Below, piece after piece: positions 5,470-41,624 of a stretch of DNA of 64,000 bases. The position numbers and the translations under genes are program-made. How positions within the stretch are numbered: the stretch's first letter is position 1; the number at the start of each line of letters is the position of its first letter. Below the pieces are notes generated by a model. The model saw only the letters and a program-made list of their open reading frames with translations, did no database searches and was not told the DNA's origin. Source of the DNA: Escherichia coli (GTDB taxonomy: Bacteria > Pseudomonadota > Gammaproteobacteria > Enterobacterales > Enterobacteriaceae); assembly GCF_050920415.1 (NCBI RefSeq), contig NZ_CP169309.1. One strand, written 5' to 3'.

Positions 5470-6369
5470 CACTTTATCGAAATGGCCATCCATTCTTGCG
5501 CGGATGGCCTCTGCCAGCTGCTCATAGCGGCTGCGCAGCGGTGAGCCCGGACGATAAACCAGGCCAATAGTGCGGCGTGGTTCCGGCTTAATACACGGCA
5601 AATAAACAACCCCATCGCGTTTGCGCTCCGGCGGCACAGCCAGTGCAGGCAGTAAAGTGATCCCGCTACCTGCCGCCACCATGTTGCGCAGAGTTTCCAG
5701 GCTGGTCGCGCGGAAGTGTGTATCTTCATCCGCCCCGGCTTCAAAGCAGAAACCCATTGCCTGATCGCGCAAACAGTGACCATCTTCCAGCATCAGCAGT
5801 TTTTCCCCTGCCAGATCGGCCATCGGTACGCATTCGCGGTTCGCCCACGGGTGATCTTCATAGATAGCCAGCAACATTGGCTCATCAAACAACGGCACTT
5901 CAATGAATGCTTCGCTCTCTTTCACCAGCGCGAGGATCACGCAATCGAGTTTGCCGCTGTCCAGTTGCGCCAGTAACTGGTGGGTCTGTGCTTCATGCAG
6001 ATACATTTCCAGCTTTGGAAAGGTCTGGTGCAGCATCGGAATAATATGCGGTAACAGGTAAGGCCCAACCGTGGGAATCAAACCAATATGCAGCGGCCCG
6101 GACATTGTCTCGCCCTGCTGGCTTGCCATCTCTTTAAGGACTTTCACCTCACGCAGCACGGTACGCGCCTGATCCACCAGCAGCATTCCCGCCTGGGTGA
6201 ACAACACTTTACGGCTGGTCCGCTCCAGCAACATCACGCCCAGCTCATCTTCCAGCTTACGAATTTGCCCGCTAAGCGTCGGCTGGCTAACGTGGCAGGA
6301 ATCTGCCGCACGCCGAAAATGACGGTGTTCAGCCAATGCCACCAGGTACTCAAGATCACGAATATTCAT
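5452..6369 (-). CDS. oxyR: LysR-family hydrogen peroxide-inducible regulator OxyR
   Basis: Conserved start [45 protein letters not shown] (305 aa); the ORF track's longer ORF starts 10 codons upstream. Confidence 0.95.
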
Positions 6370-6620: not shown

Positions 6621-7904
6621 TTACTCAATCCGATCTTTGACAATAAAGAAGTAACACAGCGCCCCGGTGAACGTCACACAGGCCGCGATAACCAGCGCCA
6701 GATTAAACGAGTGCGTGGTATCCACTACCCAACCGGTTACGATCGGAGCAAAGGAAGCAAAAACAAAACTGCCAAAGTTTTGAATCCCGGCGATGGAAGC
6801 CACTTTTGTTTCTGACACCATCACCTGCACCAGTCCCCATGCAGATGTTCCCGCGAAATGCACGCAGAACAGCGCCATTGAGATAAACGCTACAGCCTGG
6901 GCTGGCGAGGAGGATTGCACGACCAGCAACGTGCCTAATGCCGACATCATCAAACCGCAAACAATAGCCGTTTTACGCGTCTTCGCCAGGTCGTAGCCTT
7001 TTTTCGCCAGCCGATCGACAACAATACCGTTAACCCACATCCCGACCGCCGCCGCGAGGAAAGGAATCGCCGCCACCCAACCGGTTTTCGCCAGACTGAA
7101 GCCTTGCTCGGCTTGTAAATAACCGGGTAACCACGCGATGTAGAGCCAACCGGTATAATTGACGCCAGAGAAACCTAAAATCATCCCCCAGGTTGTCCGA
7201 TGCTTAAACAGCGCCAGCCACTCGCTAAATTGTAATTGTGGACGCGGTTTAACCGGCGCGGAGAGATAGGTCCGTTCTTCGTCGGTCAGGACAAACTGCG
7301 CCCGGTTGCGATACCACGCGTACCAACAGATCCCAACCAGAATCCCCGCCACGCCGATGATGACGAACATTGCCCGCCAGCCCCATGCCAGCTGCATCAA
7401 TACAAGAGCAGGAGGCGCAATAGCCTGACCGATAACGGTAGATGAGTTAAAAATCCCCAGCGCCGTGCCGCGTTCTTTTTGCGCATACCAGTCGGTGATC
7501 GACTTTACTCCCGCAGGCATAAATGGCGCTTCGCCAATACCCAGACCGATACGCATTAAAATAAAGTGGCTAAAAGAATTAACCATTCCTGTTAATGCCT
7601 GCATTAATGACCAGAATATTAAGCCTGCGCCTAAAACTATTCGTGGGCCAAAGCGGTCTAGCAAAATACCGGAAGGGAGTTGTGAAAAACCATAAGACAG
7701 AGAAAATGCAGAAAGCAAAACGCCAAATTCTGTCGCCGATAATCCTAACTCGCCACGAATCGCTTCGCCTGCCACGCTCAATGACGAACGGTCGAGGAAA
7801 TTAACGATCCCCGCCATAAATAATAAAACCAGCGTTACTGTCTGAATACGACGAATCCGTTGCGGTTTATTACCCGCAACACTGGTTGACACATCAACGT
7901 CCAT
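6621..7904 (-). CDS. MFS transporter, anion:cation symporter (ACS) type, resembling hexuronate/aldonate/galactonate-family sugar-acid permeases
   Basis: 427 aa with about 12 predicted TM segments and MFS signature regions (GIVNFLDRSSLSVAG, LLDRFGPR). Accessory gene between oxyS and argH. Confidence 0.75.
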   Translation of the reverse strand: MDVDVSTSVAGNKPQRIRRIQTVTLVLLFMAGIVNFLDRSSLSVAGEAIRGELGLSATEFGVLLSAFSLSYGFSQLPSGILLDRFGPRIVLGAGLIFWSLMQALTGMVNSFSHFILMRIGLGIGEAPFMPAGVKSITDWYAQKERGTALGIFNSSTVIGQAIAPPALVLMQLAWGWRAMFVIIGVAGILVGICWYAWYRNRAQFVLTDEERTYLSAPVKPRPQLQFSEWLALFKHRTTWGMILGFSGVNYTGWLYIAWLPGYLQAEQGFSLAKTGWVAAIPFLAAAVGMWVNGIVVDRLAKKGYDLAKTRKTAIVCGLMMSALGTLLVVQSSSPAQAVAFISMALFCVHFAGTSAWGLVQVMVSETKVASIAGIQNFGSFVFASFAPIVTGWVVDTTHSFNLALVIAACVTFTGALCYFFIVKDRIE

Positions 7905-7970
7905 TTTTAGCTCCTTGAGCGGAATTAATCGATTTGCTGACTATTCAGAAAATAATTAAGCGAACCGTTA

Positions 7971-9185
7971 TTACCAGTTCCACAATGTGCCATCTTCCAG
8001 TCGTGCGACGGGGAGATACGCCGGGTCATACGGATATTTCGCCGCCAGTTTCTCATCGAAAGAAATACCCAGCCCCGGTTCATCGCCTGGGTGCATATAA
8101 CCTTCATCGAAGCGCCAGCTGTGCGGGAAGACTTCAAGCATTTGTTCGGAATAGCCCATGTACTCCTGAACGCCAAAGTTTGGCACCCAGAGGTCAAAAT
8201 GCAGCGCCGCCGCATGACAAACAGGCGATAAATCTGAAGGGCCATGCGAACCGGTACGTACCTGATAAAGCGATGCAAAATCGGCAATCCGTCGCATCCC
8301 GGTAATGCCGCCTGCATGGGTAATCGTCGTGCGAATATAGTCAATCAGCTGCTCTTCGATTAACTGCTTGCAGTCCCAGATACTGTTAAACACTTCACCG
8401 ACCGCAATCGGCGTCACAGTATGCTGGCGAATCAGACGAAAACATTCCTGGTTCTCGGCAGGCGTCGGATCTTCCATCCAGAACAGGCGGTAATCCTCAA
8501 TGCTCTTCCCAAAGCGCGCCGCTTCGATAGGAGTCAGGCGATGGTGCATGTCATGCAACAGATGTTCGTTAAAACCGAACTTATTACGCACCGCTTCAAA
8601 TAACTTCGGTGTAAAATCGAGATACTTTTCTGAAGACCACAACTGCTCTTCCGGCCACAGGCCTTTGGTTGCCGGTTCATACGCCAGTCCTTTGCCCTTC
8701 GCCAGGCCATAAGTGGTTTGCATACCCGGTACACCGCACTGCACACGAATCGCCTTAAAGCCCATCAGCTGGTGCTTTGCATAGTCTTCAAGGACTTCAT
8801 CAATCGTGCGCCCGGTGGTGTGGCAATAAACCATCACGCCTTCACGAGAAGCCCCACCAAGCAGTTGATACAATGGCATATTTGCCGCTTTGGCTTTGAT
8901 ATCCCACAACGCCATATCAATGGCAGAAATGGCCGACATCGTGACGGGGCCACGTCGCCAGTAAGCACCTTTATAAAAGAATTGCCAGATATCTTCGATA
9001 CGGCTGGCATCGCGGCCAATTAATTGTGGACAAAGATGATCTTTCAGATAAGAAGCGACCGACAATTCGCGACCATTTAATGTGGCATCTCCCAATCCAC
9101 AAAGTCCGCTTGCAGTGGTTATTTTAAGCGTAACGAAATTACGTCTTGGGCAAGTAACAAAAACATCTGCAGCAATAATTTTCAT
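7971..9185 (-). CDS. Enolase-superfamily dehydratase, D-mannonate dehydratase (ManD) / RspA-like
   Basis: Conserved start [40 protein letters not shown] at 9185 with an AGGAG RBS (the ORF track starts 20 codons upstream at 9245). The sequence is typical of the mandelate racemase/muconate lactonizing enzyme family. Sits 66 bp upstream of the MFS gene on the same strand. Confidence 0.75.
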
Positions 9186-17332: not shown

Positions 17333-19066
17333 ATGCATTCCACAGAAGTCCAGGCTAAACCTCTTTTTAGCTGGAAAGCCCTGGGTTGGGCACTGCTCTA
17401 CTTTTGGTTTTTCTCTACTCTGCTACAGGCCATTATTTACATCAGTGGTTATAGTGGCACTAACGGCATTCGCGACTCGCTGTTATTCAGTTCGCTGTGG
17501 ATGATCCCGGTATTCCTCTTTCCGAAGCGGATTAAAATTATTGCCGCAGTAATCGGCGTGGTGCTATGGGCGGCCTCTCTGGCGGCGCTGTGCTACTACG
17601 TCATCTACGGTCAGGAGTTCTCGCAGAGCGTTCTGTTTGTGATGTTCGAAACCAACACCAACGAAGCCAGCGAGTATTTAAGCCAGTATTTCAGCCTGAA
17701 AATTGTGCTTATCGCGCTGGCCTATACGGCGGTGGCAGTTCTGCTGTGGACACGCCTGCGCCCGGTCTATATTCCAAAGCCGTGGCGTTATGTTGTCTCT
17801 TTTGCCCTGCTTTATGGCTTGATTCTGCATCCGATCGCCATGAATACGTTTATCAAAAACAAGCCGTTTGAGAAAACGTTGGATAACCTGGCATCGCGTA
17901 TGGAGCCTGCCGCACCGTGGCAATTCCTGACCGGCTATTATCAGTATCGTCAGCAACTAAACTCGCTAACAAAGCTACTGAATGAAAATAATGCCTTGCC
18001 GCCGCTGGCTAATTTCAAAGATGAATCGGGTAACGAACCGCGCACCTTAGTGCTGGTGATTGGCGAGTCGACCCAGCGTGGACGCATGAGTCTGTACGGT
18101 TATCCGCGTGAAACCACGCCGGAGCTGGATGCGCTGCATAAAACCGATCCGAATCTGACCGTGTTTAATAACGTGGTGACGTCTCGTCCGTACACCATTG
18201 AAATCCTGCAACAGGCGCTGACTTTTGCCAATGAAAAGAACCCGGATCTGTATCTGACGCAGCCGTCGCTGATGAACATGATGAAACAGGCGGGTTATAA
18301 AACCTTCTGGATCACCAACCAGCAAACGATGACCGCCCGCAATACCATGCTGACGGTATTTTCGCGCCAGACCGACAAGCAGTACTACATGAACCAGCAA
18401 CGTACGCAGAGTGCGCGTGAATACGACACCAACGTGCTGAAGCCGTTCCAGGAAGTGCTGAATGACCCTGCGCCGAAGAAACTGATCATCGTTCATCTGC
18501 TGGGTACGCATATCAAATACAAATACCGCTACCCGGAAAATCAGGGCAAGTTTGATGGCAATACCGATCATGTTCCGCCGGGACTAAGCGCAGAAGAGCT
18601 GGAGTCATATAACGATTATGATAACGCTAACCTGTATAACGATCATGTGGTTGCCAGCCTGATTAAAGACTTTAAAGCAGCAGACCCGAACGGTTTCCTG
18701 GTTTACTTCTCTGACCACGGTGAAGAGGTTTACGACACGCCGCCGCACAAAACTCAGGGGCGTAATGAGGACAACCCGACGCGTCATATGTACACCATTC
18801 CGTTCCTGCTGTGGACGTCAGAAAAATGGCAAGCGACTCATCCGCGTGATTTCTCGCAGGATGTTGATCGTAAATACAGCCTGGCGGAACTGATCCACAC
18901 CTGGTCAGATTTGGCGGGCTTATCTTACGACGGTTACGATCCAACCCGTTCAGTGGTGAATCCGCAGTTCAAAGAAACTACCCGCTGGATTGGTAACCCG
19001 TACAAGAAAAACGCGCTGATCGATTACGACACTCTGCCGTATGGCGATCAGGTGGGTAATCAGTAA
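17333..19066 (+). CDS. eptC: Phosphoethanolamine transferase (LPS core modification)
   Basis: 577 aa, MHSTEVQAKPLFSWKALGWALLYFWFF...; N-terminal TM helices plus a sulfatase-like periplasmic domain; recognised as EptC/YijP. Confidence 0.93.
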   Translation: MHSTEVQAKPLFSWKALGWALLYFWFFSTLLQAIIYISGYSGTNGIRDSLLFSSLWMIPVFLFPKRIKIIAAVIGVVLWAASLAALCYYVIYGQEFSQSVLFVMFETNTNEASEYLSQYFSLKIVLIALAYTAVAVLLWTRLRPVYIPKPWRYVVSFALLYGLILHPIAMNTFIKNKPFEKTLDNLASRMEPAAPWQFLTGYYQYRQQLNSLTKLLNENNALPPLANFKDESGNEPRTLVLVIGESTQRGRMSLYGYPRETTPELDALHKTDPNLTVFNNVVTSRPYTIEILQQALTFANEKNPDLYLTQPSLMNMMKQAGYKTFWITNQQTMTARNTMLTVFSRQTDKQYYMNQQRTQSAREYDTNVLKPFQEVLNDPAPKKLIIVHLLGTHIKYKYRYPENQGKFDGNTDHVPPGLSAEELESYNDYDNANLYNDHVVASLIKDFKAADPNGFLVYFSDHGEEVYDTPPHKTQGRNEDNPTRHMYTIPFLLWTSEKWQATHPRDFSQDVDRKYSLAELIHTWSDLAGLSYDGYDPTRSVVNPQFKETTRWIGNPYKKNALIDYDTLPYGDQVGNQ

Positions 19067-19214
19067 ATGACCTTTGTATCGCGTCTGGCACTATTTGCCG
19101 GATGCGATACTGGCACAATGTTTACATCGAACTCCCATCAGGCCACACTTTTCAGGTGGCCTTTTTTCATAATGCCAGTTACTGTTTTCCCGTCTATGTA
19201 CCTAAGGGAATAAC

Positions 19215-20066
19215 ATGTATCACGACGTCAGCTATCTGCTCTCCCGCCTGATCAACGGCCCGCTGTCGCTGCGCCAGATTTACTTTGCCAGCAGCAACGG
19301 TCCGGCGCCCGATCTTGCGTATCAGGTCGATTTTCCACGGCTGGAAATAGTGCTGGAAGGTGAATTTGTTGATACCGGCGCTGGCGCAACGTTAGTTCCC
19401 GGCGATGTGCTGTACGTTCCCGCTGGCGGCTGGAATTTCCCACAATGGCAAGCCCCCGCGACCACCTTTAGCGTGCTGTTTGGCAAACAGCAACTCGGTT
19501 TCAGCGTCGTGCAATGGGATGGCAAACAGTATCAAAATCTGGCGAAGCAACACGTCGCCCGACGCGGCCCGCGCATTGGTTCTTTTCTGCTACAAACGCT
19601 CAATGAAATGCAAATGCAGCCACAGGAGCAGCAAACGGCAAGGCTTATCGTCGCCAGCCTGCTTAGCCACTGCCGCGATTTGCTTGGCAGCCAAATCCAG
19701 ACCGCCTCACGCAGCCAGGCACTATTCGAAGCTATTCGCGATTATATCGACGAACGCTATGCCTCCGCGCTTACCCGCGAATCTGTCGCACAGGCGTTCT
19801 ATATTTCGCCAAATTACCTCTCGCACCTGTTTCAAAAAACGGGGGCCATTGGTTTTAACGAATACCTGAATCACACGCGACTGGAACACGCTAAGACGTT
19901 ATTGAAAGGCTATGACCTGAAGGTAAAAGAAGTGGCGCACGCCTGCGGCTTTGTTGACAGCAACTACTTCTGCCGTCTGTTTCGTAAAAACACCGAACGC
20001 TCGCCGTCGGAATATCGTCGGCAATACCATAGCCAACTGACAGAAAAATCGACTACTCCAGAATAA
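19215..20066 (+). CDS. yijO: AraC-family transcriptional regulator YijO
   Basis: 283 aa; C-terminal AraC-type HTH (..SPNYLSHLFQKTGAIGFNEYLNHTRLEHAKTLL..). Confidence 0.88.
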   Translation: MYHDVSYLLSRLINGPLSLRQIYFASSNGPAPDLAYQVDFPRLEIVLEGEFVDTGAGATLVPGDVLYVPAGGWNFPQWQAPATTFSVLFGKQQLGFSVVQWDGKQYQNLAKQHVARRGPRIGSFLLQTLNEMQMQPQEQQTARLIVASLLSHCRDLLGSQIQTASRSQALFEAIRDYIDERYASALTRESVAQAFYISPNYLSHLFQKTGAIGFNEYLNHTRLEHAKTLLKGYDLKVKEVAHACGFVDSNYFCRLFRKNTERSPSEYRRQYHSQLTEKSTTPE

Positions 20067-20394
20067 GATGGGTTTGCTGCGGCGCAGAAAGCACTTTGCG
20101 CACCGCGCTCATTACCCGCTGCGGCTCACGCAGGAATGCGTAGATGCTGCATTGCACATAGCGGCAATGTTCAAATCGCTCGGCACCGGCAAGCTCGATA
20201 TCCGTAATTAACAGCGCAACATCCGCCCGACGGATATCCTCGTCCGCTAAACGATTCTCCGTCCCCAGCGCGCCCTGAGTTTCAATGCTGACGCCCCACT
20301 TCTCTAACTGGCACAACTTTTCCAGCCGTTCCGCCGCCATATAAGTATGCGCCACGCCACTGACGCAGGCGGTTACTGCCACCAGGTATGCCAT
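20053..20394 (-). CDS. frwD: PTS fructose-like EIIB component FrwD
   Basis: Conserved start MAYLVAVTACVSGVAHTYMAAERLEK (113 aa), a PTS IIB fold with the active-site Cys; the ORF track's longer ORF begins 29 codons upstream. Confidence 0.88.
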   Translation of the reverse strand: MAYLVAVTACVSGVAHTYMAAERLEKLCQLEKWGVSIETQGALGTENRLADEDIRRADVALLITDIELAGAERFEHCRYVQCSIYAFLREPQRVMSAVRKVLSAPQQTHLILE

Positions 20395-20395
20395 T

Positions 20396-21274
20396 TTAAC
20401 CTCCCACGGTAACCTGAAATCCGGCCCGTTCTGCCATGTCACGCATCGTTGCCACATCAGCTGACGACGGCGCAGCAACATCTTTCATCGACCATGTTTT
20501 CCCCAGCAGACGGTATTTCGGTTCGCCGTACTGATGAAACGGCAACAGATGGATCTGCCTGATATTCAGCGGGATCAGCACGTCCAGCGCCTGCTGCATA
20601 TTCTCCCGACTGAGCGTGAAACCTGGGATCAGCGGTAAACGCGGTATCACGTTGACACCCTCACTCACCAGCAAACGCAGGTTCTCCAGCACGCGCGGCA
20701 GGTTCATCTTCACCACATCCCGCGCCTGAGTTGCATCCATTATTTTTAAATCGAACAACACTTCATCGCACAATTTCGCCAGCGGTAACAGCTTGCTGGC
20801 TGGCGCGTCTCCGGCAGTTTCGATGGCGCATGACACGCCCCACAATCGCAGCCGTTGCAAAAAACGGGTAGCAAACTCCGCCTGCATTAGCACTTCACCG
20901 CCAGAAAGCGTGACGCCGCCGCCAGACGTGCGAAAGAAAATGTCATCTTTCATCACTTCCCGTTCCAGCGCGTCGAGGCTGATATCACGACCAATCCGTT
21001 CAAACGCGCCGGAGGGACATTCATCCGCATCGCGCAAACATTTCGCGCAGTGCAGACATTTCGCCTCTCTGCGTACCGTCTGGATTTTGCCGGAGATCGA
21101 CTCCGGATTAGCACACCACGGGCAAAGATGCGGACAGCCTTTAAAAAATACCACCGTACGAATGCCCTCGCCGTCATTCAGTGAATAACGCTGAATGTTG
21201 AAAATGCGCGCCACATCATCGCGGCGCGTTTCCACAACGTTACAGCTGATGCGCTGTCCGGCGGATGATGTCAT
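20396..21274 (-). CDS. pflC: Glycyl-radical enzyme activating protein (pyruvate formate-lyase 2 activase)
   Basis: Conserved start MTSSAGQRI..; radical-SAM CxxxCxxC motif (GCPHLCPWC) and additional ferredoxin-like Cys clusters. Confidence 0.9.
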   Translation of the reverse strand: MTSSAGQRISCNVVETRRDDVARIFNIQRYSLNDGEGIRTVVFFKGCPHLCPWCANPESISGKIQTVRREAKCLHCAKCLRDADECPSGAFERIGRDISLDALEREVMKDDIFFRTSGGGVTLSGGEVLMQAEFATRFLQRLRLWGVSCAIETAGDAPASKLLPLAKLCDEVLFDLKIMDATQARDVVKMNLPRVLENLRLLVSEGVNVIPRLPLIPGFTLSRENMQQALDVLIPLNIRQIHLLPFHQYGEPKYRLLGKTWSMKDVAAPSSADVATMRDMAERAGFQVTVGG

Positions 21275-23537
21275 CCTGGATCTCCTTCGACAATTCGACA
21301 AAGAAGGCGCTGTATCCGGCTACGCGCACCACCAGCCCGGCATAGTCCTGTGGGCGCTGTTGGGCTTCCCGCAACGTGTCAGCGTTCACCACGTTAAACT
21401 GAATATGCTGTAACTTAAGCTGGGTAAATGCCCGTAAGAAGTCGGCTAGTTTGCGTAATCCCGCTTCACCTTCCAGGGTCGCCGGAGTGAATTTCACGTT
21501 CAGCAATGTACCGTTAGAAAGCAGCGTGTTATCGAGCTTGCTGACTGATTTCAGTACCGCCGTTGGTCCTTGTGCGTCCTGGCCCAGCATGGGTGACAAG
21601 CCTCCGTCTGCCAGTTGTTCCCCGGCAAAACGACCGTCTGGCGTCGCACCAACCACCGCTCCCAACGGGACATGAGCAGAAACGGTATACGATCCTGGCG
21701 TGAAGTAGCCACCGCGCGGGTTCTGGTAATTTTCCACTTCTTTGCAGTAATGACGCAGGAGTTCGGCGCTAATGTTATCCACCTCGTCGATATCGTTACC
21801 GTATTTCTCAAAGCGGTTAATTAAGCGAGCGCGGACTTTTTCGCCTTCTGGCGTTGCGAAGTTGGCTTTTAATACCGACAGCAATTCGTCAAAACTTAAA
21901 CGCTGTTGCTCAAAAACCATCCCTTTCAACGCATGGAGAGAATCGCTCAGGTTGGCGATACCGATCCCCTGTACGCCGGAGAAGTTATAACGCGCGCCGC
22001 CATCGGTAATATCGCGGCCATTTTCCAGACAATCGCTGATAAACGACGAGAGCAGCGGTACAGGAGCCCAGTCACGATGGCCGATATCACAAATATTGCT
22101 GCCTTCAACCATCAGGGTGATGTAGTGGCTGATCTTGACGCGGATCTGTTCCAGCAAACCTTCATAACTCAGCGCGGCATTGCCTTCATTTTCATGCAAG
22201 CAGATTTCCATCACTTTCAGCAGGTTAAACATCGCGATGTCATGCAAGCCGTAGGTTCTGCCAGGAATAGATAATTCCACGCAGCCCACTACGGAATAGT
22301 CGCGCGCATCTTCCAGCGAAACGCCACGGTTGAGGAACGCTGGCACCACCACTTCATCGTTAAAGATTTGCGGAATCCCCGTGCCGAGGCGGATGGTTTC
22401 TGCGGTTTTCATCAGGAAAGGCGTGTCGATCAAGGCGTTAGTGCGCACGCCGAGGTTCGGTTGCGGCAATTGCACGCTTTGATAAGCATCGAGACAGAGG
22501 AACGAAAGCACGTTCACTGCGCTACGTCCGTTCTCGGTTAACCCACCGAGCAGGGCGGTATAGCCGGTTGGGAAACCTGCGAAATAACGCGCGCTGCTGG
22601 TGGAGCGCAACAGCACGATGTCATTGCATTTCACCCATAAAGATTCGAGCAGTTCTTTCAGGAACGCCGGATCTTCGCCCTGGGTTAATGATGCCTGATA
22701 GAAAGGCAACATATACTGGTCGAAGCGCCCTAAAGACAGCGAGCTGGCGTTGGATTCGTATTGCAGAATGATGTTCATGTACCAGAACAACTGACACGCC
22801 TGCCAGAATGTCTGCGGCTTATGTTCGGCGTTATGGCGGGAGTTCTCCGCGATAGTCAGCAGTTCTTCGCGACGCTGGGCATCGGTGCAGTTTGCCGCCA
22901 TCGTTTCCGCCAGTTCGGCGTAACGCAAAATGTGTTTCTGCGAGGCTTCGAGCAATAACAGCGCAGCCTGATAAAAGTGATTCTCCGGCTGTTGCTGGCA
23001 ATGTTGCTGCATCTGCGCCACCAGCTCACCCAGCCCGTGATTCAGCAGGCGCGGGTAATCAATAATGATGTGCCCCTGGCCTTTATCTGTCTGGTTGATA
23101 CTGAAAATCTGCGTGCTGGTCGCGGCTTTTACTTCATCCGTCATCTGCCCGTTAATAAAATCTTTCATCGAGCGTTTTTCCCAGTATGGGAACAGCTCTT
23201 CGCGGTAGATACGTTTATCTTCTTCACTAATGGCGAAGCGGTCCTGCGGTCGCGTCGGAAATTGATCCAGCTCTTTCAGCAGCCAGTAAGGGTCCATTTC
23301 CGGCGACATAATCCCGGCGCGCGGTTTTACGGTACGGTTACCAGCAATCAGTTCTTCATCACGAATCGAAATTTCAACATGTTCAAGGATATACGCTGTT
23401 GCTTTCGCCCGGCGCAATATCACTGGATCGCCTTCGGTTTGCCGATGGCTGGCGGTATAAAGCAGCGCCCGCTCCAGCGAGATTTCACGGGTATTAGCAA
23501 ACAGTGCAGTTTTAAGGCGAGAGATACGATTCGTCAT
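21240..23537 (-). CDS. pflD: Formate acetyltransferase 2 / glycyl radical enzyme PflD
   Basis: 765 aa, MTNRISRLKTALFANTREISLERALLYTASHRQTEG..., with the C-terminal glycyl radical motif (RVAGYSAFF). Overlaps the pflC start by about 35 nt. Confidence 0.93.
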   Translation of the reverse strand: MTNRISRLKTALFANTREISLERALLYTASHRQTEGDPVILRRAKATAYILEHVEISIRDEELIAGNRTVKPRAGIMSPEMDPYWLLKELDQFPTRPQDRFAISEEDKRIYREELFPYWEKRSMKDFINGQMTDEVKAATSTQIFSINQTDKGQGHIIIDYPRLLNHGLGELVAQMQQHCQQQPENHFYQAALLLLEASQKHILRYAELAETMAANCTDAQRREELLTIAENSRHNAEHKPQTFWQACQLFWYMNIILQYESNASSLSLGRFDQYMLPFYQASLTQGEDPAFLKELLESLWVKCNDIVLLRSTSSARYFAGFPTGYTALLGGLTENGRSAVNVLSFLCLDAYQSVQLPQPNLGVRTNALIDTPFLMKTAETIRLGTGIPQIFNDEVVVPAFLNRGVSLEDARDYSVVGCVELSIPGRTYGLHDIAMFNLLKVMEICLHENEGNAALSYEGLLEQIRVKISHYITLMVEGSNICDIGHRDWAPVPLLSSFISDCLENGRDITDGGARYNFSGVQGIGIANLSDSLHALKGMVFEQQRLSFDELLSVLKANFATPEGEKVRARLINRFEKYGNDIDEVDNISAELLRHYCKEVENYQNPRGGYFTPGSYTVSAHVPLGAVVGATPDGRFAGEQLADGGLSPMLGQDAQGPTAVLKSVSKLDNTLLSNGTLLNVKFTPATLEGEAGLRKLADFLRAFTQLKLQHIQFNVVNADTLREAQQRPQDYAGLVVRVAGYSAFFVELSKEIQDDIIRRTAHQL

Positions 23538-23587
23538 GAGGAACTCCTGTGGGGAAGCGAACCCGCCCTTGCGAGCGGGATAAGGAC

Positions 23588-23908
23588 TTAAGCGGTTTGT
23601 GCCAGGTGAGCTTCAATTTTGCTCATAATGGCGTCAGCACGTTTTACCGCGTCGCTGATGTTGACGCGCACAATGGTCTTGCCAGCAAAACGCTCTTCAA
23701 ACTTGATGCCGATATCTTTGGTCAGAATCACCATATCGGCGCTCGCCACGTCTTCCGCAGTCAGTTCATTTTCCAGACCAATCGAGCCCTGAGTTTCTAC
23801 TTTCACTTCCCAACCTTTCGCTTTCGCGGCACTTTCCAGCGCCTCTGCCGCCATATAAGTATGGGCAACACCAGATGGACATGCGGTTACTGCAATAATT
23901 TTCGTCAT
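23588..23908 (-). CDS. frwB: PTS fructose-like EIIB component FrwB
   Basis: 106 aa, MTKIIAVTACPSGVAHTYMAAEALE... Confidence 0.9.
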   Translation of the reverse strand: MTKIIAVTACPSGVAHTYMAAEALESAAKAKGWEVKVETQGSIGLENELTAEDVASADMVILTKDIGIKFEERFAGKTIVRVNISDAVKRADAIMSKIEAHLAQTA

Positions 23909-23922
23909 GGCTCGTTCCTCAA

Positions 23923-25002
23923 TTAATTAATTTCAAAATCCAGATCCAGGTCGTCTTCCTTCTCATCAGTCGAAGGCCCATTTTTACGCGCCAGACTTTT
24001 CAGCACGTTCACACAAACTGCTGTCACTACTGCCCCGACAGCCACTGCTGCGATATAACCCAGCTTGCCTTCAACCACAGGCAGCACAATCAGACCACCC
24101 CAGCCTGCATAGCACTGCGCACCGACCAGCGCCGCAGTCACTGCACCACAAACTGAACCGACCATGATGGAAGGAATGACACGCAGCGGATCGGCAGCGG
24201 CGAAAGGAATCGCCCCTTCAGTAACACCAACGCACCCCATCACCAGCGCCGCTTTGCCGGTTTCGCGCTCTTCTGCAGAGAAATTTTTACGACCAATCAG
24301 CGTCGCCAGCCCCATGCCCAACGGTGGAACACAAATCCCAACAGCGGCAATAGCCACCACGGTATAAACACCCTGAGCAACGCAAATCAGCATGAAGGCA
24401 TAGGCCACTTTGTTAACCGGACCGCCCATATCGAACGCCAGCATCAGCCCCATGATCACCGCCAGCATAACAATGCTGCCCTGCTGCATCCCCTGTAGCC
24501 ACTGAGTCAGGCTGTTGGTCAACGCACCCACCGGCTCGCCCAGTCCCCACATCATGACACCAGCGGTAATCAGTGTGCCGACGATCGGAATGATGAAGAT
24601 TGGCATCACCGAGCGCAGAACTTTATGCACCGGAATTTTCTTCAGATAATGCACCACGATGCCGCCGATAATCCCTGCGATCAGCGCACCAAAGAAGCCC
24701 GCGCCAAAGCTGTTACCAACCCAGGCACCGATGGCGCACGGAGCCAGCGCAGAACGTTCTGCAATGGAATAACCGATGTACGCTGCGAGGAAAGGCACCA
24801 TCAGCGTCAACCCCGCAACGCCGATATCAAACAGTTTTTTTAGATTCGGATCGGCTACGGCATCCGGCACTGCGCCTTTGCCATACAACATGACGGAAAC
24901 CGCCAGCAAAATACCGCCCGATACCACGAAGGGAATCATATGTGAAACGCCCGTCATTAAATGCTGACGGGTATTTTTCAGGATCTGCACCAACTCATTC
25001 AT
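23923..25002 (-). CDS. frwC: PTS fructose-like EIIC permease FrwC
   Basis: Conserved start MNELVQILKNTRQHLMTGVSHMIPF (359 aa), polytopic membrane protein; the ORF track starts 7 codons upstream. Confidence 0.9.
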   Translation of the reverse strand: MNELVQILKNTRQHLMTGVSHMIPFVVSGGILLAVSVMLYGKGAVPDAVADPNLKKLFDIGVAGLTLMVPFLAAYIGYSIAERSALAPCAIGAWVGNSFGAGFFGALIAGIIGGIVVHYLKKIPVHKVLRSVMPIFIIPIVGTLITAGVMMWGLGEPVGALTNSLTQWLQGMQQGSIVMLAVIMGLMLAFDMGGPVNKVAYAFMLICVAQGVYTVVAIAAVGICVPPLGMGLATLIGRKNFSAEERETGKAALVMGCVGVTEGAIPFAAADPLRVIPSIMVGSVCGAVTAALVGAQCYAGWGGLIVLPVVEGKLGYIAAVAVGAVVTAVCVNVLKSLARKNGPSTDEKEDDLDLDFEIN

Positions 25003-25310
25003 AAGCTGCTCCCGGGCTTGCAAAAGCCCATGTCCATATTTTTGATGGAGGAAACAATAGGCAATCGCAGGCGGAGCAAACAGTGGATAAAAAGGCCATT
25101 TACTGGACTTTTGTAATATCAGTACAAAAATGCGATCCGCCTCATAACTTGCGATAATCCGGAAGCCTGCCGCAAAACGGCATCTTGTGAGACGCGTCGC
25201 AAATTGACGGTTACATTACATTTGTCCAGCTTTTGGCAGATTTGTCACATGGCAGGCCGTTGCCGTGCGCTCTTATCCTGTAAACAGAGAACCGTACCGG
25301 GAGAAAGGCA

Positions 25311-27812
25311 ATGGCCCTGATTGTGGAATTTATTTGTGAGCTACCTAACGGCGTACATGCCCGTCCGGCAAGCCACGTTGAAACGCTGTGTAATACTTTT
25401 TCATCACAAATTGAGTGGCATAACCTGCGCACTGACCGCAAGGGCAACGCCAAAAGCGCCCTTGCGCTGATTGGCACCGATACGCTGGTGGGCGATAGCT
25501 GCCAGTTACTGATTTCCGGGGCCGATGAACAGGAAGCGCATCAGCGTTTAAGCCAATGGCTGCGCGATGAATTTCCCCACTGCGACGCGCCGCTGGCGGA
25601 AATAAAATCTGACGAACTGGAGCCGCTGCCGGTATCATTAACCAACCTGAATCCGCGTATTATCCGCGCCCGCACCGTATGCAGTGGTAGCGCAGGCGGC
25701 ATTCTGACGCCAATCTCTTCTTTAGATCTCAACGCGCTGGGTAACCTCCCCGCAACCAACGGCGTTGACGCCGAGCAATCCGCGCTGGAAAACGGCCTGA
25801 CACTGGTACTGAAAAATATTGAGTTTCGTCTGCTGGATAGCGACGGTGCTACCAGCGCGATTCTGGAAGCGCACCGCTCCCTGGCTGGCGATACTTCCCT
25901 GCGCGAACATTTACTGGCAGGCGTCAGCGCTGGATTAAGCTGCGCCGAAGCGATTGTCGCCAGTGCGAATCACTTTTGCGAAGAGTTTTCCCGTTCCAGC
26001 AGCAGCTACCAGCAAGAACGCGCGCTGGATGTGCGCGATGTCTGCTTCCAGTTACTCCAGCAAATCTACGGCGAGAAACGCTTTCCGGCACCGGGCAAGC
26101 TAACGCAGCCCGCCATTTGTATGGCGGATGAACTGACCCCTAGCCAGTTCCTCGAACTGGATAAAAATCACCTCAAAGGATTGTTGCTCAAAAGCGGCGG
26201 CACCACCTCACACACGGTGATCCTTGCCCGTTCGTTCAACATTCCGACGCTGGTTGGTGTGGATATTGATGCCCTTACTCCGTGGCAGCATCAAACGATT
26301 TATATCGACGGCAACGCTGGGGCGATTGTGGTTGAGCCTGGAGAAGCCGTAGCCCGTTATTATCAGCAAGAAGCCCGCGTACAGAACGCCCTTCGTGAGC
26401 AACAGCGTGTCTGGCTGACCCAACAAGCCCGTACCGCTGACGGTATCCGCATTGAAATTGCCGCTAACATCGCTCACTCCGTCGAAGCGCAGGCCGCATT
26501 CGGCAATGGTGCGGAAGGCGTTGGTTTGTTCCGCACTGAAATGCTCTATATGGATCGCACCAGTGCACCGGGCGAAAGCGAGCTGTACAACATTTTTTGT
26601 CAGGCGCTGGAGTCCGCCAACGGACGCAGCATTATTGTGCGCACTATGGATATTGGCGGTGACAAACCCGTTGATTATCTGAATATTCCCGCAGAGGCAA
26701 ACCCGTTCCTCGGTTATCGCGCCGTACGTATTTATGAAGAGTACGCCTCGTTGTTTACCACGCAGCTACGATCGATCCTGCGCGCCTCCGCTCATGGCAG
26801 CCTGAAAATCATGATCCCGATGATCTCTTCAATGGAAGAGATCTTATGGGTGAAAGAAAAACTGGCAGAAGCTAAACAGCAGCTGCGTAACGAACACATT
26901 CCGTTTGATGAGAAAATCCAGCTCGGTATCATGCTTGAAGTGCCGTCAGTAATGTTCATCATCGATCAATGCTGTGAAGAGATTGATTTCTTTAGTATTG
27001 GTAGTAATGACCTGACGCAATATCTGCTGGCAGTGGATCGCGATAACGCTAAGGTAACTCGTCACTACAACAGCCTGAATCCGGCATTCTTACGAGCGCT
27101 TGATTACGCCGTGCAGGCAGTGCATCGCCAGGGCAAATGGATTGGTCTGTGCGGTGAACTGGGGGCGAAAGGTTCCGTGCTGCCGTTGCTGGTCGGTTTA
27201 GGGCTGGATGAGTTGAGCATGAGTGCACCGTCAATTCCGGCGGCGAAAGCGCGGATGGCGCAACTTGATAGCCGCGAATGCCGCCAGTTACTCAACCAGG
27301 CAATGGCCTGCCGTACTTCGCTGGAAGTGGAACACCTGCTGGCACAATTCCGCATGACGCAACAGGACGCACCGTTGGTCACCGCCGAGTGCATCACGCT
27401 GGAAAGCGACTGGCGCAGCAAAGAAGAAGTGCTCAAAGGCATGACCGATAACCTGCTGCTGGCGGGCCGCTGCCGCTATCCGCGTAAACTGGAAGCCGAC
27501 TTGTGGGCGCGCGAGGCCGTTTTCTCTACCGGTCTGGGCTTTAGTTTTGCCATTCCACACAGCAAATCAGAACACATTGAGCAGTCCACCATCAGCGTGG
27601 CGCGTCTGCAAGCGCCAGTGCGCTGGGGCGATGATGAAGCACAATTCATCATTATGTTAACCCTTAACAAACACGCTGCCGGCGATCAGCATATGCGCAT
27701 TTTCTCGCGCCTCGCTCGCCGCATCATGCACGAAGAATTCCGTAACGCGCTGGTTAACGCCGCCTCTGCCGACGCTATCGCCAGCCTGCTGCAACATGAA
27801 CTGGAACTGTAA
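25311..27812 (+). CDS. ptsA: Multiphosphoryl transfer protein (HPr-like / Enzyme I-like / EIIA fusion)
   Basis: 833 aa; N-terminal HPr-like domain (..[11 protein letters not shown]..), central PEP-utilising enzyme domain, C-terminal EIIA (fructose type) domain. Confidence 0.9.
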
Positions 27813-27823
27813 AAGGAAACATC

Positions 27824-28486
27824 ATGGAACTGTATCTGGACACCGCTAACGTCGCAGAAGTCGAACGTCTGGCACGCATATTCCCGATTGCCGGGGTAAC
27901 AACTAACCCGAGCATTATCGCGGCCAGCAAGGAGTCCATCTGGGAAGTGCTGCCGCGTTTGCAAAAAGCGATTGGTGATGAGGGTATTTTGTTTGCTCAG
28001 ACCATGAGTCGTGACGCGCAGGGTATGGTGGAAGAAGCGAAGCGCCTGCGCGACGCCATTCCGGGCATTGTGGTGAAAATCCCGGTAACTTCCGAAGGTC
28101 TTGCCGCCATTAAAATGCTGAAAAAAGAGGGTATTACTACACTTGGCACCGCTGTATATAGCGCCGCACAAGGGTTATTAGCCGCGCTGGCAGGGGCAAA
28201 ATATGTTGCTCCGTATGTTAACCGCGTCGACGCCCAGGGCGGTGACGGCATTCGTACGGTTCAGGAGCTGCAAGCGCTGTTGGAAATGCACGCGCCAGAA
28301 AGCATGGTGCTGGCTGCCAGCTTTAAAACACCGCGTCAGGCGCTGGAATGTTTGCTGGCAGGATGTGAGTCCATCACCCTACCCTTAGATGTAGCGCAAC
28401 AAATGCTCAACACTCCTGCGGTAGAGTCGGCTATAGAGAAGTTTGAGCACGACTGGAATGCCGCATTTGGCACTACTCATCTCTAA
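27824..28486 (+). CDS. fsaB: Fructose-6-phosphate aldolase 2
   Basis: 220 aa, [37 protein letters not shown]... (transaldolase-like). Confidence 0.93.
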
Positions 28487-28496
28487 AGGAGCAATT

Positions 28497-29600
28497 ATGG
28501 ACCGCATTATTCAATCACCGGGTAAATACATCCAGGGCGCAGATGTCATTAATCGTCTGGGCGAGTACCTGAAGCCGCTGGCAGAACGCTGGTTAGTGGT
28601 GGGTGACAAATTTGTTTTAGGTTTTGCTCAATCCACTGTCGAGAAAAGCTTTAAAGATGCTGGACTGGTAGTAGAAATTGCGCCGTTTGGCGGTGAATGT
28701 TCGCAAAATGAGATCGACCGTCTGCGTGGCATCGCGGAGACTGCGCAGTGTGGCGCAATTCTCGGTATCGGTGGCGGAAAAACCCTCGATACTGCCAAAG
28801 CGCTGGCACATTTCATGGATGTTCCGGTAGCGATCGCACCGACTATTGCCTCTACCGACGCACCGTGCAGCGCGCTGTCTGTTATCTACACCGATGATGG
28901 TGAGTTTGACCGCTATTTGCTGTTGCCAAATAACCCGAATATGGTCATTGTCGACACCAAAATCGTCGCGGGCGCACCTGCACGTCTGTTAGCGGCGGGT
29001 ATCGGCGATGCGCTGGCGACCTGGTTTGAAGCGCGTGCTTGCTCTCGTAGCGGTGCGACCACAATGGCGGGCGGTAAGTGTACTCAGGCAGCGCTGGCGC
29101 TGGCTGAACTGTGCTACAACACGCTGCTGGAAGAAGGCGAAAAAGCGATGCTTGCCGCCGAACAGCATGTAGTAACTCCAGCACTGGAACGCGTGATTGA
29201 AGCGAACACCTATTTGAGCGGCGTTGGCTTTGAAAGCGGTGGGCTGGCTGCGGCGCACGCGGTGCATAACGGCCTGACTGCAATCCCTGATGCCCATCAC
29301 TATTATCATGGTGAAAAAGTGGCATTCGGTACGCTGACGCAGCTGGTTCTGGAAAATGCGCCGGTGGAAGAAATCGAAACCGTAGCTGCACTTAGCCATG
29401 CGGTAGGTTTGCCAATAACCCTCGCTCAACTGGATATTAAAGAAGATGTCCCGGCGAAAATGCGGATTGTGGCAGAAGCGGCATGTGCAGAAGGTGAAAC
29501 CATCCACAACATGCCTGGCGGCGCGACGCCAGATCAGGTTTACGCCGCACTGCTGGTAGCCGACCAGTACGGTCAGCGTTTCCTGCAAGAGTGGGAATAA
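28497..29600 (+). CDS. gldA: Glycerol dehydrogenase
   Basis: Conserved start [39 protein letters not shown] (367 aa); iron-containing alcohol dehydrogenase family. Confidence 0.95.
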
Positions 29601-35245: not shown

Positions 35246-35294
35246 CTGCGAAATCAACGGGTAACAAACAGCAGAGTCAACTCAGTGCGTACTT

Positions 35295-36850
35295 TTATTT
35301 AATATCTTTCACGCGCATACCGTTGATCTGTTCATCCGTGATGGTATTACCCGCTTTAAAGTAATCAACCACCGCGTGATAAACGTAATAACCGCCCGTC
35401 GTATTGCGCGCTTTACCCTCGGTAAACGCGGTAAAACCATCTCCACCATCAGCAAGGAAACTCTGAGTGGCAATGTGGTAAACCGTCGCATCTTCAATCG
35501 GTTTGCCATTCAAAGTCAGTGAGATAACCCGCTGACCAACCGGCTTGCTGCTGTCGTACTTCATTTCCAGGCCTTTCGATACCTGTAAAACGCCATTACT
35601 TAAACTTGCGCCGTGTTCCATCAAACTGCGTAATTGTTTACCCGTGAGATCCATCGTCACCAGTTCGTTGGGGAACGGGAAGGTACTGATGACGCCACCC
35701 ATCGTAATTGCACCCGCCGGGATCTCATTGCGAATCCCGCCAGAGTTGGTTAACGCCAACTGGGTATTTTTACCCGCCGCTGCCAGCAAAGCGTCCGCCG
35801 CCAGGTTCCCGAGGGAAGCCGATTCACCATAGGCACGTTTTAATTCAACCGGCGATTGCGCCACCGTTTGCTGACTTCATCCAGCTTTTTGTTCCAACTA
35901 TCAATCACCTGTTTCGTTTGCGGATCGGGCTTCCACTCATCGGCGTAAAGGGTTTTAAGCTCGAAGTTTTTCACCGTAAAAGTGTGCGGCTTCTCTTTGT
36001 AGTCGAGAACCAGTTTACCCACATCAATCCCGCCGCTGTCAGTGGAGAGGATTAACGTATTGCCGACTTTAATCGGTTCCGGCGTACCCACATGTGCATG
36101 CCCGGTGATCAAAATATCCAGCCCTTTCACCTGACTTGCCGTCTGAATATCTTTATCCAGCGCGCGACGCACATCTGTGCCTCCCATACTGGACTGGCGG
36201 GCCGGAACACCTTCGTGGATCAGGGCAACGGTCAAATCAACCTTGCCTTTGAGTTCATCGATATAACGTTGTAGCCATTTAATTTCATCACGCGCCTCAA
36301 TACCCACTCGCGTTGCCGCAGATACCGTATCATTAAAGGCAAATACACCGTGCAAACCAATCACGCCAATTTTCACGCCGTCTTTTTCAATGATGGTATA
36401 GGGCTTATCCCAGAATGATTTACTGCTGTTCTGATAAAAAACATTACCCTGCACAATCGGGAATTTTGCCTGACTCAGCTGTAATAACGTATTGTCCCAG
36501 CCGTGATCAAATTCATGATTACCTATAGTGACCGCATCGAACGGCATGGTATTCATAATATCGATAATCGCCTTGCCTTTAGTCAGGCTGCTGATATACG
36601 GCCCGGTAAAATAGTCACCCGCATCAAAAAACCAGGTCGCTTTGTTTTTAGCTTTTTCTTGTTTAACAAGCGTAGTGATATTTGCCCAGCCGCCAATATC
36701 TCGTTTACCGTCAGCAATCCACGGCACTTTATAAGGCTCTACATGTGCATGGAGGTCGTTGGTATAAATGATGGTGACATCTTTGGCGCAAGCCCAAAAC
36801 GGCAGTGTTAATGCGATACCCGCAGCAAGCATTTTAATTTTCATAAACAA
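35295..36850 (-). pseudogene. Frameshifted periplasmic 5'-nucleotidase/metallophosphatase paralog (UshA/CpdB-type two-domain enzyme)
   Basis: ORF 35840..36850 (336 aa, signal peptide MFMKIKMLAAGIALTLPFWA; metallophosphatase motifs NDLHAH, DAGDYF, GNHEFD, GHAH) is followed in another frame by ORF 35295..35864 (189 aa, nucleotidase C-terminal domain). The two parts align end-to-end with the intact downstream paralog, so a single frameshift near 35860-35875 splits one gene. Confidence 0.75.
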
Positions 36851-36903
36851 TCCCTTCCAGTGAGATAAAGGATTGCTACATTACGTTCTGAAAGGCTTTT
36901 TTA

Positions 36904-36919
36904 TGTGAGAATACTCACA
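36904..36919. promoter_or_regulatory. CRP-type palindrome (TGTGA-N6-TCACA) in the divergent promoter region
   Basis: tgtgagaatactcaca is a perfect match to both CRP half-sites with a 6 bp spacer, lying between the nucleotidase pseudogene start (36850) and the Cys-rich ORF start (36977). Confidence 0.55.
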
Positions 36920-36976
36920 TCCAGAGGCGATAACTGTAGGACAAAATCAACGACCTTATGAAATCGTTGGTGATAT

Positions 36977-38104
36977 ATGTCAAATCTGTTTGCGATTAAT
37001 GTCTGTAAAACGTTCGGTTGTCGAAATTTGGGATTGGCCTCATCGGAAGATTACAGTTGGCCAGACTATAAACTGGGTTTTCCGGCACTACACTGCCAGG
37101 CATGCGGAAGTTACCCCCCTTTGTTTGATGAACAACAATTTCGTGACTGGTTGTCAGTTCACATGACTACGTGTGCCATAGAAACAGGGCATTTTTGTCC
37201 ATCATGCTATTGTAAAGAAAAGATTTTTTATGGCCACAACCCGCAGGGAACACAACGCGTTCAATGCCGTTCATGCAAAAAAGTCTGGACTCCGAAACAG
37301 CAGCCAGCAAGAGAAATTACGTATCCCCAGTCCATTGAAACCGTTCAACTGTTCATGCCCTTTCAAGGAGCCAGCGCACTACAAAAGCTCTATGTTTTAG
37401 TCAGTCTTGACGCCACTCGTGGCAACATCCTTCATCTCTCCACGAATTATACGCAACATCAGACAGGAGACAGTCTGCGGTACAGTTACAGAGGCAATAC
37501 AGAACCAACTGAGCACCATAGCGATATTGTGCAGAGGGTAGATATGCGTGAAGCGCAATTCTTGCGCCGGAGCCAGTTCGATGAAATTCAGTATGGCAGT
37601 GCTGTGCTCAAGCGCAATGGCAAGGGAGCCATACTACGCCCGGTTATCACGGCACACGGGCATTTCAGAATACTGAAAATCCGCTTTCCACATGTCAAAA
37701 CGCATATCATTTCACACGAATGTTTTCTGAGAGGCGCAATTATTACAGCCTGGGCAGATCAGTTCCGCCAACAACAAGGCGAACTTTGGTTCGTAGAAGA
37801 AGAAATCAGCGACCGTAACGCTGATATTCCCTGGCATTTTCAGGGAACGACATACCATGGTTGGTGGCAAAATCAGTGGCAACGCTGGGGGCAGGGGAAT
37901 AACAGCAAGATGGTCTGCCTGCTCACAGGAGTCTCCTTAGAAAGGGGCGCAAATGTTTCTCTGGCAACCAGTCGTTGCTTTATCACATGGCTGACAGACC
38001 AACACGACTTTACCCAAAGCGCGTTATTATCCGCAGGTCGCGTAACGAAAATGCTGACCTCACTGGCGTTAAAATACAATGAATCGCTCAATCCATCTTG
38101 TTAG
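36977..38104 (+). CDS. Hypothetical cysteine-rich protein with an IS1 InsA-like N-terminal zinc ribbon
   Basis: 375 aa. N-terminal 100 aa carry CxxxxC, CxxC, CxxC and CxxC motifs (CKTFGC, CQAC, CPSC, CRSC); the stretch CPSC..RVQCRSCKKVW resembles the IS1 InsA zinc finger CPSC..RYLCSHCRKTW as I recall it. No recognisable DDE or HTH motif seen by eye in the remaining 270 aa. Flanked by AT-rich DNA. Confidence 0.6.
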   Translation: MSNLFAINVCKTFGCRNLGLASSEDYSWPDYKLGFPALHCQACGSYPPLFDEQQFRDWLSVHMTTCAIETGHFCPSCYCKEKIFYGHNPQGTQRVQCRSCKKVWTPKQQPAREITYPQSIETVQLFMPFQGASALQKLYVLVSLDATRGNILHLSTNYTQHQTGDSLRYSYRGNTEPTEHHSDIVQRVDMREAQFLRRSQFDEIQYGSAVLKRNGKGAILRPVITAHGHFRILKIRFPHVKTHIISHECFLRGAIITAWADQFRQQQGELWFVEEEISDRNADIPWHFQGTTYHGWWQNQWQRWGQGNNSKMVCLLTGVSLERGANVSLATSRCFITWLTDQHDFTQSALLSAGRVTKMLTSLALKYNESLNPSC

Positions 38105-38333
38105 TCAATACACTCGACAAACGACCATAAATTAATGGGATCACTATTTCTCATTTAATTAAATATATGAATGTATGACTGAAAAATATAATCACAGTCA
38201 ATGTTTAATTAATAACATTATTTGTTACTAAGATCACATAATACTTTCCTGACCTATGCTTACATAAAAATAAGACACGGAGTTCCTTTTATTTAAATAA
38301 TTCAACCAATGTAACAACCCCTATCAAGGAGGG

Positions 38334-39887: not shown

Positions 39888-39921
39888 AATATCATTTATC
39901 AGTCTATATATTTAACAAGGA

Positions 39922-41547: not shown

Positions 41548-41558
41548 TAAAAAATTAT

Positions 41559-41594
41559 AATGCCATTCATTCACTGAATGGCATTATTTTTCTC
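41559..41594 (+). terminator. Intrinsic terminator after nucleotidase paralog C
   Basis: aatgccattca ttcac tgaatggcatt followed by a T-rich run. Confidence 0.6.
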
Positions 41595-41624
41595 TAAATC
41601 AACAATAAATAATGAGATATATTT

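Follow-up and report, generated by a model that had tools for sequence, protein, structure and literature searches.

How does Escherichia coli begin the synthesis of PflC, the activase of the glycyl radical enzyme PflD, when the annotated start of pflC lies inside the pflD gene, and what do the two proteins do for the cell? The question is raised by the frw/pfl cluster (positions 20053–25002) of contig NZ_CP169309.1, which we analysed within a stretch of 64,000 nucleotides (the window). Gene coordinates are those of the RefSeq annotation of a 100%-identical record (NZ_CP169399.1), converted to window positions. Both sequence and annotation place five co-directional genes in one block with frwC first. 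This block is the operon frwC-frwB-pflD-pflC-frwD of the E. coli core genome. Of 5426 complete E. coli genomes, 5425 possess the cluster. The original prediction had taken its tightly packed gene boundaries as a sign of translational coupling and had considered its substrate to be poorly defined. As an explanation of the whole locus, we think it probable that frwCB-pflDC-frwD and the divergent genes ptsA-fsaB-gldA form an anaerobic pathway for 1,5-anhydromannitol, an explanation which includes the gene boundaries, their coupling and the convergent overlap with yijO.

The overlap between pflD (21240–23537, minus strand) and pflC (20396–21274, minus strand) had been put at about 35 nt. In the raw sequence it is exactly this long (21240–21274, minus strand) and it is identical in K-12 MG1655. 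The pflC ATG (21274–21272) sits within the pflD codons for Asp755 and Asp756, and the ribosome-binding site AAGGAG (21282–21287, minus strand), 7 nt 5′ of the ATG, coincides with the pflD codons for Lys751 and Glu752. The overlap might be an annotation artefact, with PflC starting at one of two in-frame GTG codons past the pflD stop, 21235 or 21211. Such codons do exist (codons 14 and 21 of E. coli pflC), residues 1–13 of PflC are predicted to be disordered, and the orthologous activases from Firmicutes, like PflA, begin only 4–7 residues ahead of the conserved core. Neither GTG, however, is preceded by a ribosome-binding site, and a comparison of species speaks against both.

For this comparison one genome per species was scanned, which yielded 80 loci with PflC relatives. 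The proteobacterial loci (about 50 species) come from Enterobacterales, Vibrio, Pasteurellaceae, Gilliamella, Zophobihabitans and the alphaproteobacterium Pseudovibrio. In all of these but one, the stop codon of the enzyme gene is found exactly 35 nt past the ATG in a Gln-Asp-Asp context. The overlap ATG is always in frame with the activase core (IFNIQRYSLN) in these loci. The linker between the two varies from 15 to 40 codons, and the frame stays open despite insertions and deletions. In numerous species, no other codon from the pflD stop to the core could serve as a start. Only some species have GTG or ATG directly ahead of the core; elsewhere the codon at this place is ACC, GTA, ACG, AAG, GTT or another.

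Within pflD, the synonymous sites which create the AAGGAG and the ATG are nearly invariant. Asp755 is encoded by GAT in 49 of 50 species (background 0.61), the adjacent Asp756 in only four of 50. Lys751 is encoded by AAG in 42 of 46 species (background 0.34) and Glu752 by GAG in 43 of 50 (background 0.41). Averaged over pflD codons 743–765, the fraction of the most frequent codon is 0.74, compared with 0.56 over codons 638–737, which served as control; peaks are at K751, E752, Q754, D755 and D756. Comparison of the 50 species rules out a start at GTG 21235 or 21211, and an annotation artefact is thus very improbable. A reassigned start codon, which the original prediction had named as a result that would do away with the overlap, is rejected. 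We conclude from these comparisons that the 35-nt overlap is real and under selection. In the relatives from Firmicutes, the activase gene starts 10–20 nt 3′ of the enzyme stop or overlaps it by 1–4 nt. Set against this layout, the fixed distance in Proteobacteria marks the overlap as a derived and conserved proteobacterial feature.

One locus carries a lesion at this place. In Kluyvera genomosp. 3 (CP022114.1, around 5950–6000), a frameshift lies exactly in the glycine radical motif (RVAATAPS...). It joins the reading frames of pflD and pflC and deletes the radical glycine, which indicates either a pseudogene or a sequencing error.

PflC has the CX3CX2C motif (Cys47/51/54), invariant in 32 aligned sequences, and belongs by motif and score to the radical S-adenosylmethionine (SAM) family of glycyl radical enzyme (GRE) activating proteins (NCBIfam TIGR02494, 261.1 bits; cutoff 174.35). 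The alignment defines residues 1 to about 20 as an extension which is variable in sequence and length. In the AlphaFold2 model (mean predicted local distance difference test score, pLDDT, 88), residues 1–13 have values below 50 and no secondary structure precedes residue 21. According to this model the roughly 20 extra residues are a disordered by-product of the start position. Given this variability and predicted disorder, it seems to be the site of initiation, and not the amino-terminal peptide of PflC, that is under selection. These residues look dispensable, which is of use for expression of the activase or for engineering of the pathway. The PflC orthologues of Streptococcus and Enterococcus lack the Cys-rich ferredoxin-like insert of other PflC-type activases and resemble PflA in this respect.

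Are such overlaps unusual? Elsewhere in the window, yijD and fabR overlap by 1 nt and sthA and oxyR by 18 nt. Of 2,987 co-directional gene pairs in E. coli, 707 have distances from −8 to +6 nt, and −4 is much more frequent than any other value (PMC10666635). Overlaps as a class are therefore ordinary, whereas a co-directional overlap of 35 nt is uncommon. When the distance range of coupled pairs (−8 to +10 nt) is applied, the pflC/frwD spacing of +1 falls inside and the pflD/pflC distance of −35 outside. The former is an ordinary junction, since it lies within the range where termination–reinitiation works in E. coli.

At this second junction, the spacing of 1 nt (position 20395) between pflC and frwD (20053–20394, minus strand) was confirmed, and K-12 has the same distance. 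The frwD ATG is at 20394–20392. Its ribosome-binding site GGAGG (20400–20404, minus strand), 5 nt before the ATG, is contained in the last two pflC codons (Gly-Gly). The tight junction and the GGAGG are kept in a group comprising Escherichia, Citrobacter, Enterobacter, Leclercia, Pluralibacter and Edwardsiella. Gaps of 15–77 nt with separate ribosome-binding sites are found in Klebsiella, Yersinia, Serratia, Buttiauxella and Rahnella. The distance is polymorphic even at close range: our strain, K-12 and one other locus have 1 nt, and E. albertii and some E. coli have 2 nt. In addition, the amino terminus of FrwD is five residues shorter in E. coli than in the orthologues from Citrobacter and Enterobacter.

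Given these boundaries, translational coupling is plausible at pflD/pflC and at pflC/frwD, and for each of the two junctions we see the chances as evenly balanced. At the first, ribosomes finishing pflD would melt a weak hairpin that covers the pflC ribosome-binding site, or they would step back 35 nt to reinitiate. If pflC initiation depended on pflD translation, an activase required in catalytic amounts would be tied to its enzyme. At the second, FrwD would be made by termination–reinitiation 1 nt past the pflC stop, with the ribosome-binding site in the last pflC codons. The candidate hairpin (21282–21306, minus strand) comes from a minimum free energy fold, in which CUUCUUUG (the pflD codons for Ala-Phe-Phe-Val, 21306–21299) pairs with CGAAGGAG (21289–21282). 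A stem of 8 bp is possible in most species, and 93.6% of the cells in the alignment are paired.

A number of observations weigh against coupling of this kind. Covariation in the stem does not exceed that in shuffled alignments, of which 33 of 500 reached the observed percentage of paired cells and 19 of 500 the number of double changes. The local fold at the pflC ribosome-binding site has a z-score of only −1.7, and the bases of the hairpin are also constrained by the conserved peptide Ala-Phe-Phe-Val-Glu-Leu-Ser-Lys-Glu. Sequestration of the pflC ribosome-binding site by this hairpin is thus a weak hypothesis and the hairpin a candidate. Reinitiation in native E. coli pairs falls steeply with distance, by 80–100% at +38 nt (PMC10666635), so that scanning backwards over 35 nt is possibly inefficient. 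The tight pflC/frwD junction is confined to one enterobacterial subclade, and several genera do not have the 14-nt convergent overlap at the far end of frwD.

The main rival to coupling states that the overlaps are real but arose by neutral drift of start codons, with pflC and frwD initiating independently of upstream translation. Both genes have good ribosome-binding sites, the hairpin has no support from covariation, and the relatives with 15–77 nt before frwD or 10–20 nt before the activase gene are presumably functional. Conservation of the synonymous sites that form the ribosome-binding site and the ATG is equally expected if pflC initiates independently. On the other hand, the −35 layout is fixed in very divergent Proteobacteria while the linker varies, so that the position inside pflD seems to matter, and the +1 spacing is within the range of efficient reinitiation. 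We regard independent initiation as a real possibility, though one with somewhat less than an even chance. A more elaborate proposal would see the pflC start inside pflD and the hairpin as a dedicated coupling device which fixes a low activase to enzyme ratio. It would add a frwD-yijO regulatory module, acting by antisense interference or by an EIIB protein that signals the phosphorylation state of the phosphotransferase system (PTS) to an AraC-type regulator. This we consider unlikely.

The third boundary is of a different kind. The 14-nt overlap (20053–20066) of the convergent 3′ ends of frwD and yijO (19215–20066, plus strand) was verified and is the same in K-12. Contrary to its earlier use as a sign of coupling, it is irrelevant to translational coupling and is a matter of transcription. 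The length of 14 nt is found in about 22 of 40 enterobacterial species; in the others the overlap is 17, 8, 4 or 0 nt, or the genes are up to 136 nt apart. Since the coding regions themselves overlap by 14 nt, overlapping transcripts are certain if both genes are expressed, and the pair frwD-yijO has been named a convergent excludon on the basis of RNA-seq coverage (PMC12288877). No convincing intrinsic terminator was found at the junctions or at the convergent 3′ ends, where the counts correspond to those expected from shuffled sequence. The convergent 18-nt overlap of sthA and oxyR (window 5452–5469) is in the same list of excludons (PMC12288877), which shows that convergent overlaps are nothing special to the frw/pfl cluster.

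To which class of enzymes does PflD belong? RefSeq names it ‘formate C-acetyltransferase’, and it could accordingly be a second pyruvate (or 2-ketobutyrate) formate-lyase. The annotation pipeline of NCBI (PGAP) takes this name from NCBIfam NF007437 (1717 bits for PflD), and the glycyl radical fold is common to PflD and PflB. The radical site is Gly741 in the RVAGYS motif; in alignments its equivalents are Gly763 in glycerol dehydratase and, with the initial Met counted, Gly735 in PflB. We compared the active-site residues with those of characterised enzymes, as had been proposed. Gly418-Cys419-Val420-Glu421, His156 and Asp433 of PflD correspond to Cys433, Glu435, His164 and Asp447 of glycerol dehydratase; at the corresponding positions PflB has Cys-Cys-Val-Ser and Arg. 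PflD hence does not have the Cys-Cys pair, which is replaced by Gly418-Cys419, and has Glu421 in place of the Ser of PflB. It possesses the G-C-x-E, His and Asp residues which define the dehydratase class (1,2-eliminases) of GREs. The family models agree with this: PflD scores 1340.8 bits with the PFL2/glycerol dehydratase model TIGR01774 (cutoff 678.2) but 117.7 bits with the pyruvate formate-lyase model TIGR01255 (cutoff 994.2). Its nearest solved relatives are dehydratases, and a dehydratase activity is assigned to it in a review (PMC12441222). We consider a formate-lyase function to be extremely improbable.

The view of the substrate as poorly defined is outdated. A substrate was assigned to PflD in 2024 (Ma et al., as summarised in PMC12441222; PDB 8YJO), and the original prediction had itself named such an assignment as a refutation. 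According to this review of 2025, PflD converts 1,5-anhydromannitol-6-phosphate to 1-deoxyfructose-6-phosphate (Ma et al. 2024, JACS 146:26187), and YbiW makes the same product from 1,5-anhydroglucitol-6-phosphate. The anhydro-polyols are phosphorylated by a PTS, and E. coli and many gut bacteria thereby grow anaerobically on these 1,5-anhydro-polyols (PMC12441222). The protein of the window is orthologous to the crystallised E. coli PflD. It matches PDB 8YJO (‘Probable dehydratase PflD’) with 1716 bits over residues 1–765 at about 13 differences in 765 positions (approximately 98% identity), and its gene has the genomic position of K-12 b3951. We therefore assign PflD as a 1,5-anhydromannitol-6-phosphate dehydratase, with the activity taken from the literature and the orthology deduced here.

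In the proposed pathway, PtsA, FrwB and FrwC import and phosphorylate 1,5-anhydromannitol, and PflD, once activated by PflC, dehydrates 1,5-anhydromannitol-6-phosphate to 1-deoxyfructose-6-phosphate; for these steps there are reports in the literature. The Fsa aldolase is reported to cleave this product and GldA to reduce hydroxyacetone. An Fsa-type aldolase and GldA would process 1-deoxyfructose-6-phosphate, a step also suggested by gene context. From Enterobacterales to Firmicutes, the enzyme–activase pair adjoins an Fsa-type aldolase gene and usually also EIIB and EIIC genes. In Vibrio, Gilliamella and Firmicutes the fsaB-type gene is directly beside pflDC, and YbiW-type relatives likewise adjoin fsa. 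In Vibrio (e.g. Vibrio harveyi, locus 6866–7741) and Pseudovibrio, a gene for a protein of 291 residues is located between pflC and the fsaB-type aldolase gene. By eye, the protein resembles an NAD-dependent short-chain dehydrogenase of the RmlD type, and it may represent an extra step feeding the pathway. The pair frwD-yijO comes after the aldolase gene in these loci. There, too, yijO is still the tail-to-tail neighbour of frwD, despite the genes between pflC and frwD.

The genes for the transport components and their partners are arranged as follows. The operon begins with frwC (23923–25002, minus strand), which encodes the PTS enzyme IIC (EIIC), a permease of the fructose family (NCBIfam NF007787, 719 bits; cutoff 426). 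It is followed by frwB (23588–23908, minus strand) for the enzyme IIB (EIIB; NF007783, 210 bits; cutoff 135). FrwD is a second EIIB-type protein (NF007747, 225 bits; cutoff 153). Both FrwB and FrwD qualify as EIIB proteins of the fructose family by equivalog score and by the cysteine of the TAC motif; VTAC with the active-site Cys is present in each. The junctions inside the operon are less tight in this part, with 14 nt between frwC and frwB and 50 nt between frwB and pflD, and frwB carries its own ribosome-binding site, GAGGA. The companion operon ptsA-fsaB-gldA (25311–29600, plus strand) runs divergently from frwC. According to RefSeq and family models, ptsA (25311–27812, plus strand; PGAP label ptsP) encodes a fusion of HPr, enzyme I (EI) and enzyme IIA (EIIA). 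The aldolase gene fsaB (27824–28486, plus strand) and the dehydrogenase gene gldA (28497–29600, plus strand) were taken from the RefSeq annotation.

Control of the two operons could be exerted in the divergent frwC-ptsA region (25003–25310). Three CRP-like palindromes are located there (25131–25146, 25186–25201 and 25234–25249), compared with 0.13 sites with up to two mismatches expected per 308 nt. The central palindrome, TGTGAGACGCGTCGCA, has one mismatch. Enterobacterial genera share the half-sites and their spacing (48 and 55 nt) but differ in the spacers. An enzyme of the PflD type is strictly anaerobic, and a site for FNR would hence be expected. No FNR-type site within two mismatches was found in the control region (25003–25310). 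YijO, an AraC-family protein with the Pfam domain HTH_18 at residues 192–270, is likely to be the specific local regulator of the cluster, for which it is the obvious candidate by domain and gene position. In its amino-terminal half no Pfam domain was detected, only a faint JmjC/cupin match (E = 0.024).

A further structural element is located in the frwB-pflD spacer, where sequence and folds reveal a GC-rich hairpin of 7 bp (CCCGCUC-GCAA-GGGCGGG; 23562–23579, minus strand). It has a GCAA loop and no U-tract, and was not called as a terminator. At this position Pluralibacter, Enterobacter and others have similar hairpins of another sequence. In some Citrobacter and Edwardsiella it is taken instead by long repeats which resemble repetitive extragenic palindromic (REP) sequences or bacterial interspersed mosaic elements (BIME), and some species have nothing of this kind. 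The spacer hairpin may be an mRNA stability or processing element which separates the PTS genes from the enzyme genes. A search of positions 19000–26000 did not reveal any Rfam family at E ≤ 1.

With respect to the strain, window positions 18000–27000 are 100% identical to E. coli strain MFDS1022581 (NZ_CP169399.1) and share 95–99% identity with about 5,400 further complete genomes. The allele of the cluster itself (20053–25002) has approximately 95.4–95.7% DNA identity to K-12 and most E. coli, with all genes intact, and only the source strain reaches at least 99%. This diverged allele may have originated by recombination or in a deep lineage. On E. coli plasmids, 539 matches (80–90% identity) to the 9-kb query were obtained, but only two to the cluster alone; the plasmid homology therefore comes from a flank (18000–20052 or 25003–27000), with the 3′ part of eptC, yijO or the 5′ part of ptsA. 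Two other blocks of the window presumably break the gene order of K-12. Positions 6621–9185, between oxyR and argH, contain manD and a pseudogene of a major facilitator superfamily (MFS) transporter. The metF-metL interval, 35294–42469, contains three 5′-nucleotidase paralogues (one of them frameshifted), a hypothetical gene and a truncated tsx.

Little is left for discovery, since cluster, gene boundaries, substrate and enzyme structure are already public. All that our analysis adds is comparative proof of where PflC starts, a constraint on synonymous sites within pflD, and the detection of outdated product names. The comparative data settle the true start of PflC. With regard to names, RefSeq and PGAP call PflC ‘[formate-C-acetyltransferase]-activating enzyme’ and use the symbol ptsP for ptsA in addition to the formate-lyase name of PflD. 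Such names spread an outdated function to thousands of genomes. The pathway degrades 1,5-anhydro-sugars in the gut, and knowledge of the PflC start is also relevant for its engineering.

Among known systems, the K-12 cluster frwCB-pflDC-frwD/ptsA-fsaB-gldA (b3947–b3954) is the same in genes, order and the three boundary distances. At about 95.5% DNA identity, no functional difference is visible in the allele of our strain. PflB and PflA share the glycyl radical fold and the radical-SAM activase with PflD and PflC, whereas the Cys-Cys pair is restricted to PflB. Furthermore, pflA is located 191 nt past pflB, and PflA has neither an amino-terminal extension nor a Cys-rich insert. The B12-independent glycerol dehydratase of Clostridium butyricum (PDB 1R8W) is a 640-bit match of PflD with which it shares the catalytic set. 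The enzymes differ in substrate, which is a phosphorylated anhydro-hexitol for PflD, and His281 of glycerol dehydratase is replaced by Ser265. Other 1,2-eliminases among the GREs (propanediol dehydratase, CutC, HypD) have the same Gly radical, Cys-x-Glu, His and Asp set.

With respect to the overlap, there is a likeness to RNA phages. Their coat and lysis genes overlap by 38 nt in fr and by 50 nt in MS2, and proposals for these pairs invoke back-scanning and RNA unfolding (PMC12548453). The pflD/pflC distance of −35 nt would be analogous; coupling has been tested experimentally in the phages and is suggested by sequence for pflDC.

A paralogous system within E. coli is YbiW/YbiY with fsaA (PDB 8YJN and 8ID7 for YbiW), again a GRE dehydratase and its activase beside an Fsa aldolase. 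The review gives YbiW the same product as PflD (PMC12441222), and PflD matches YbiW at 485 bits. The two types can be told apart by their signature motifs, ESNGHS and WGYRCTG in YbiW-type and ESNASS and TYGLHD in PflD-type enzymes. They also differ in gene arrangement: in K-12 MG1655 (860174–864304) the activase gene ybiY comes first and is separated from ybiW by a gap of 5 nt, fsaA is divergent, and there are no PTS genes in the operon. This layout indicates that the 35-nt overlap is specific to the pflDC lineage.

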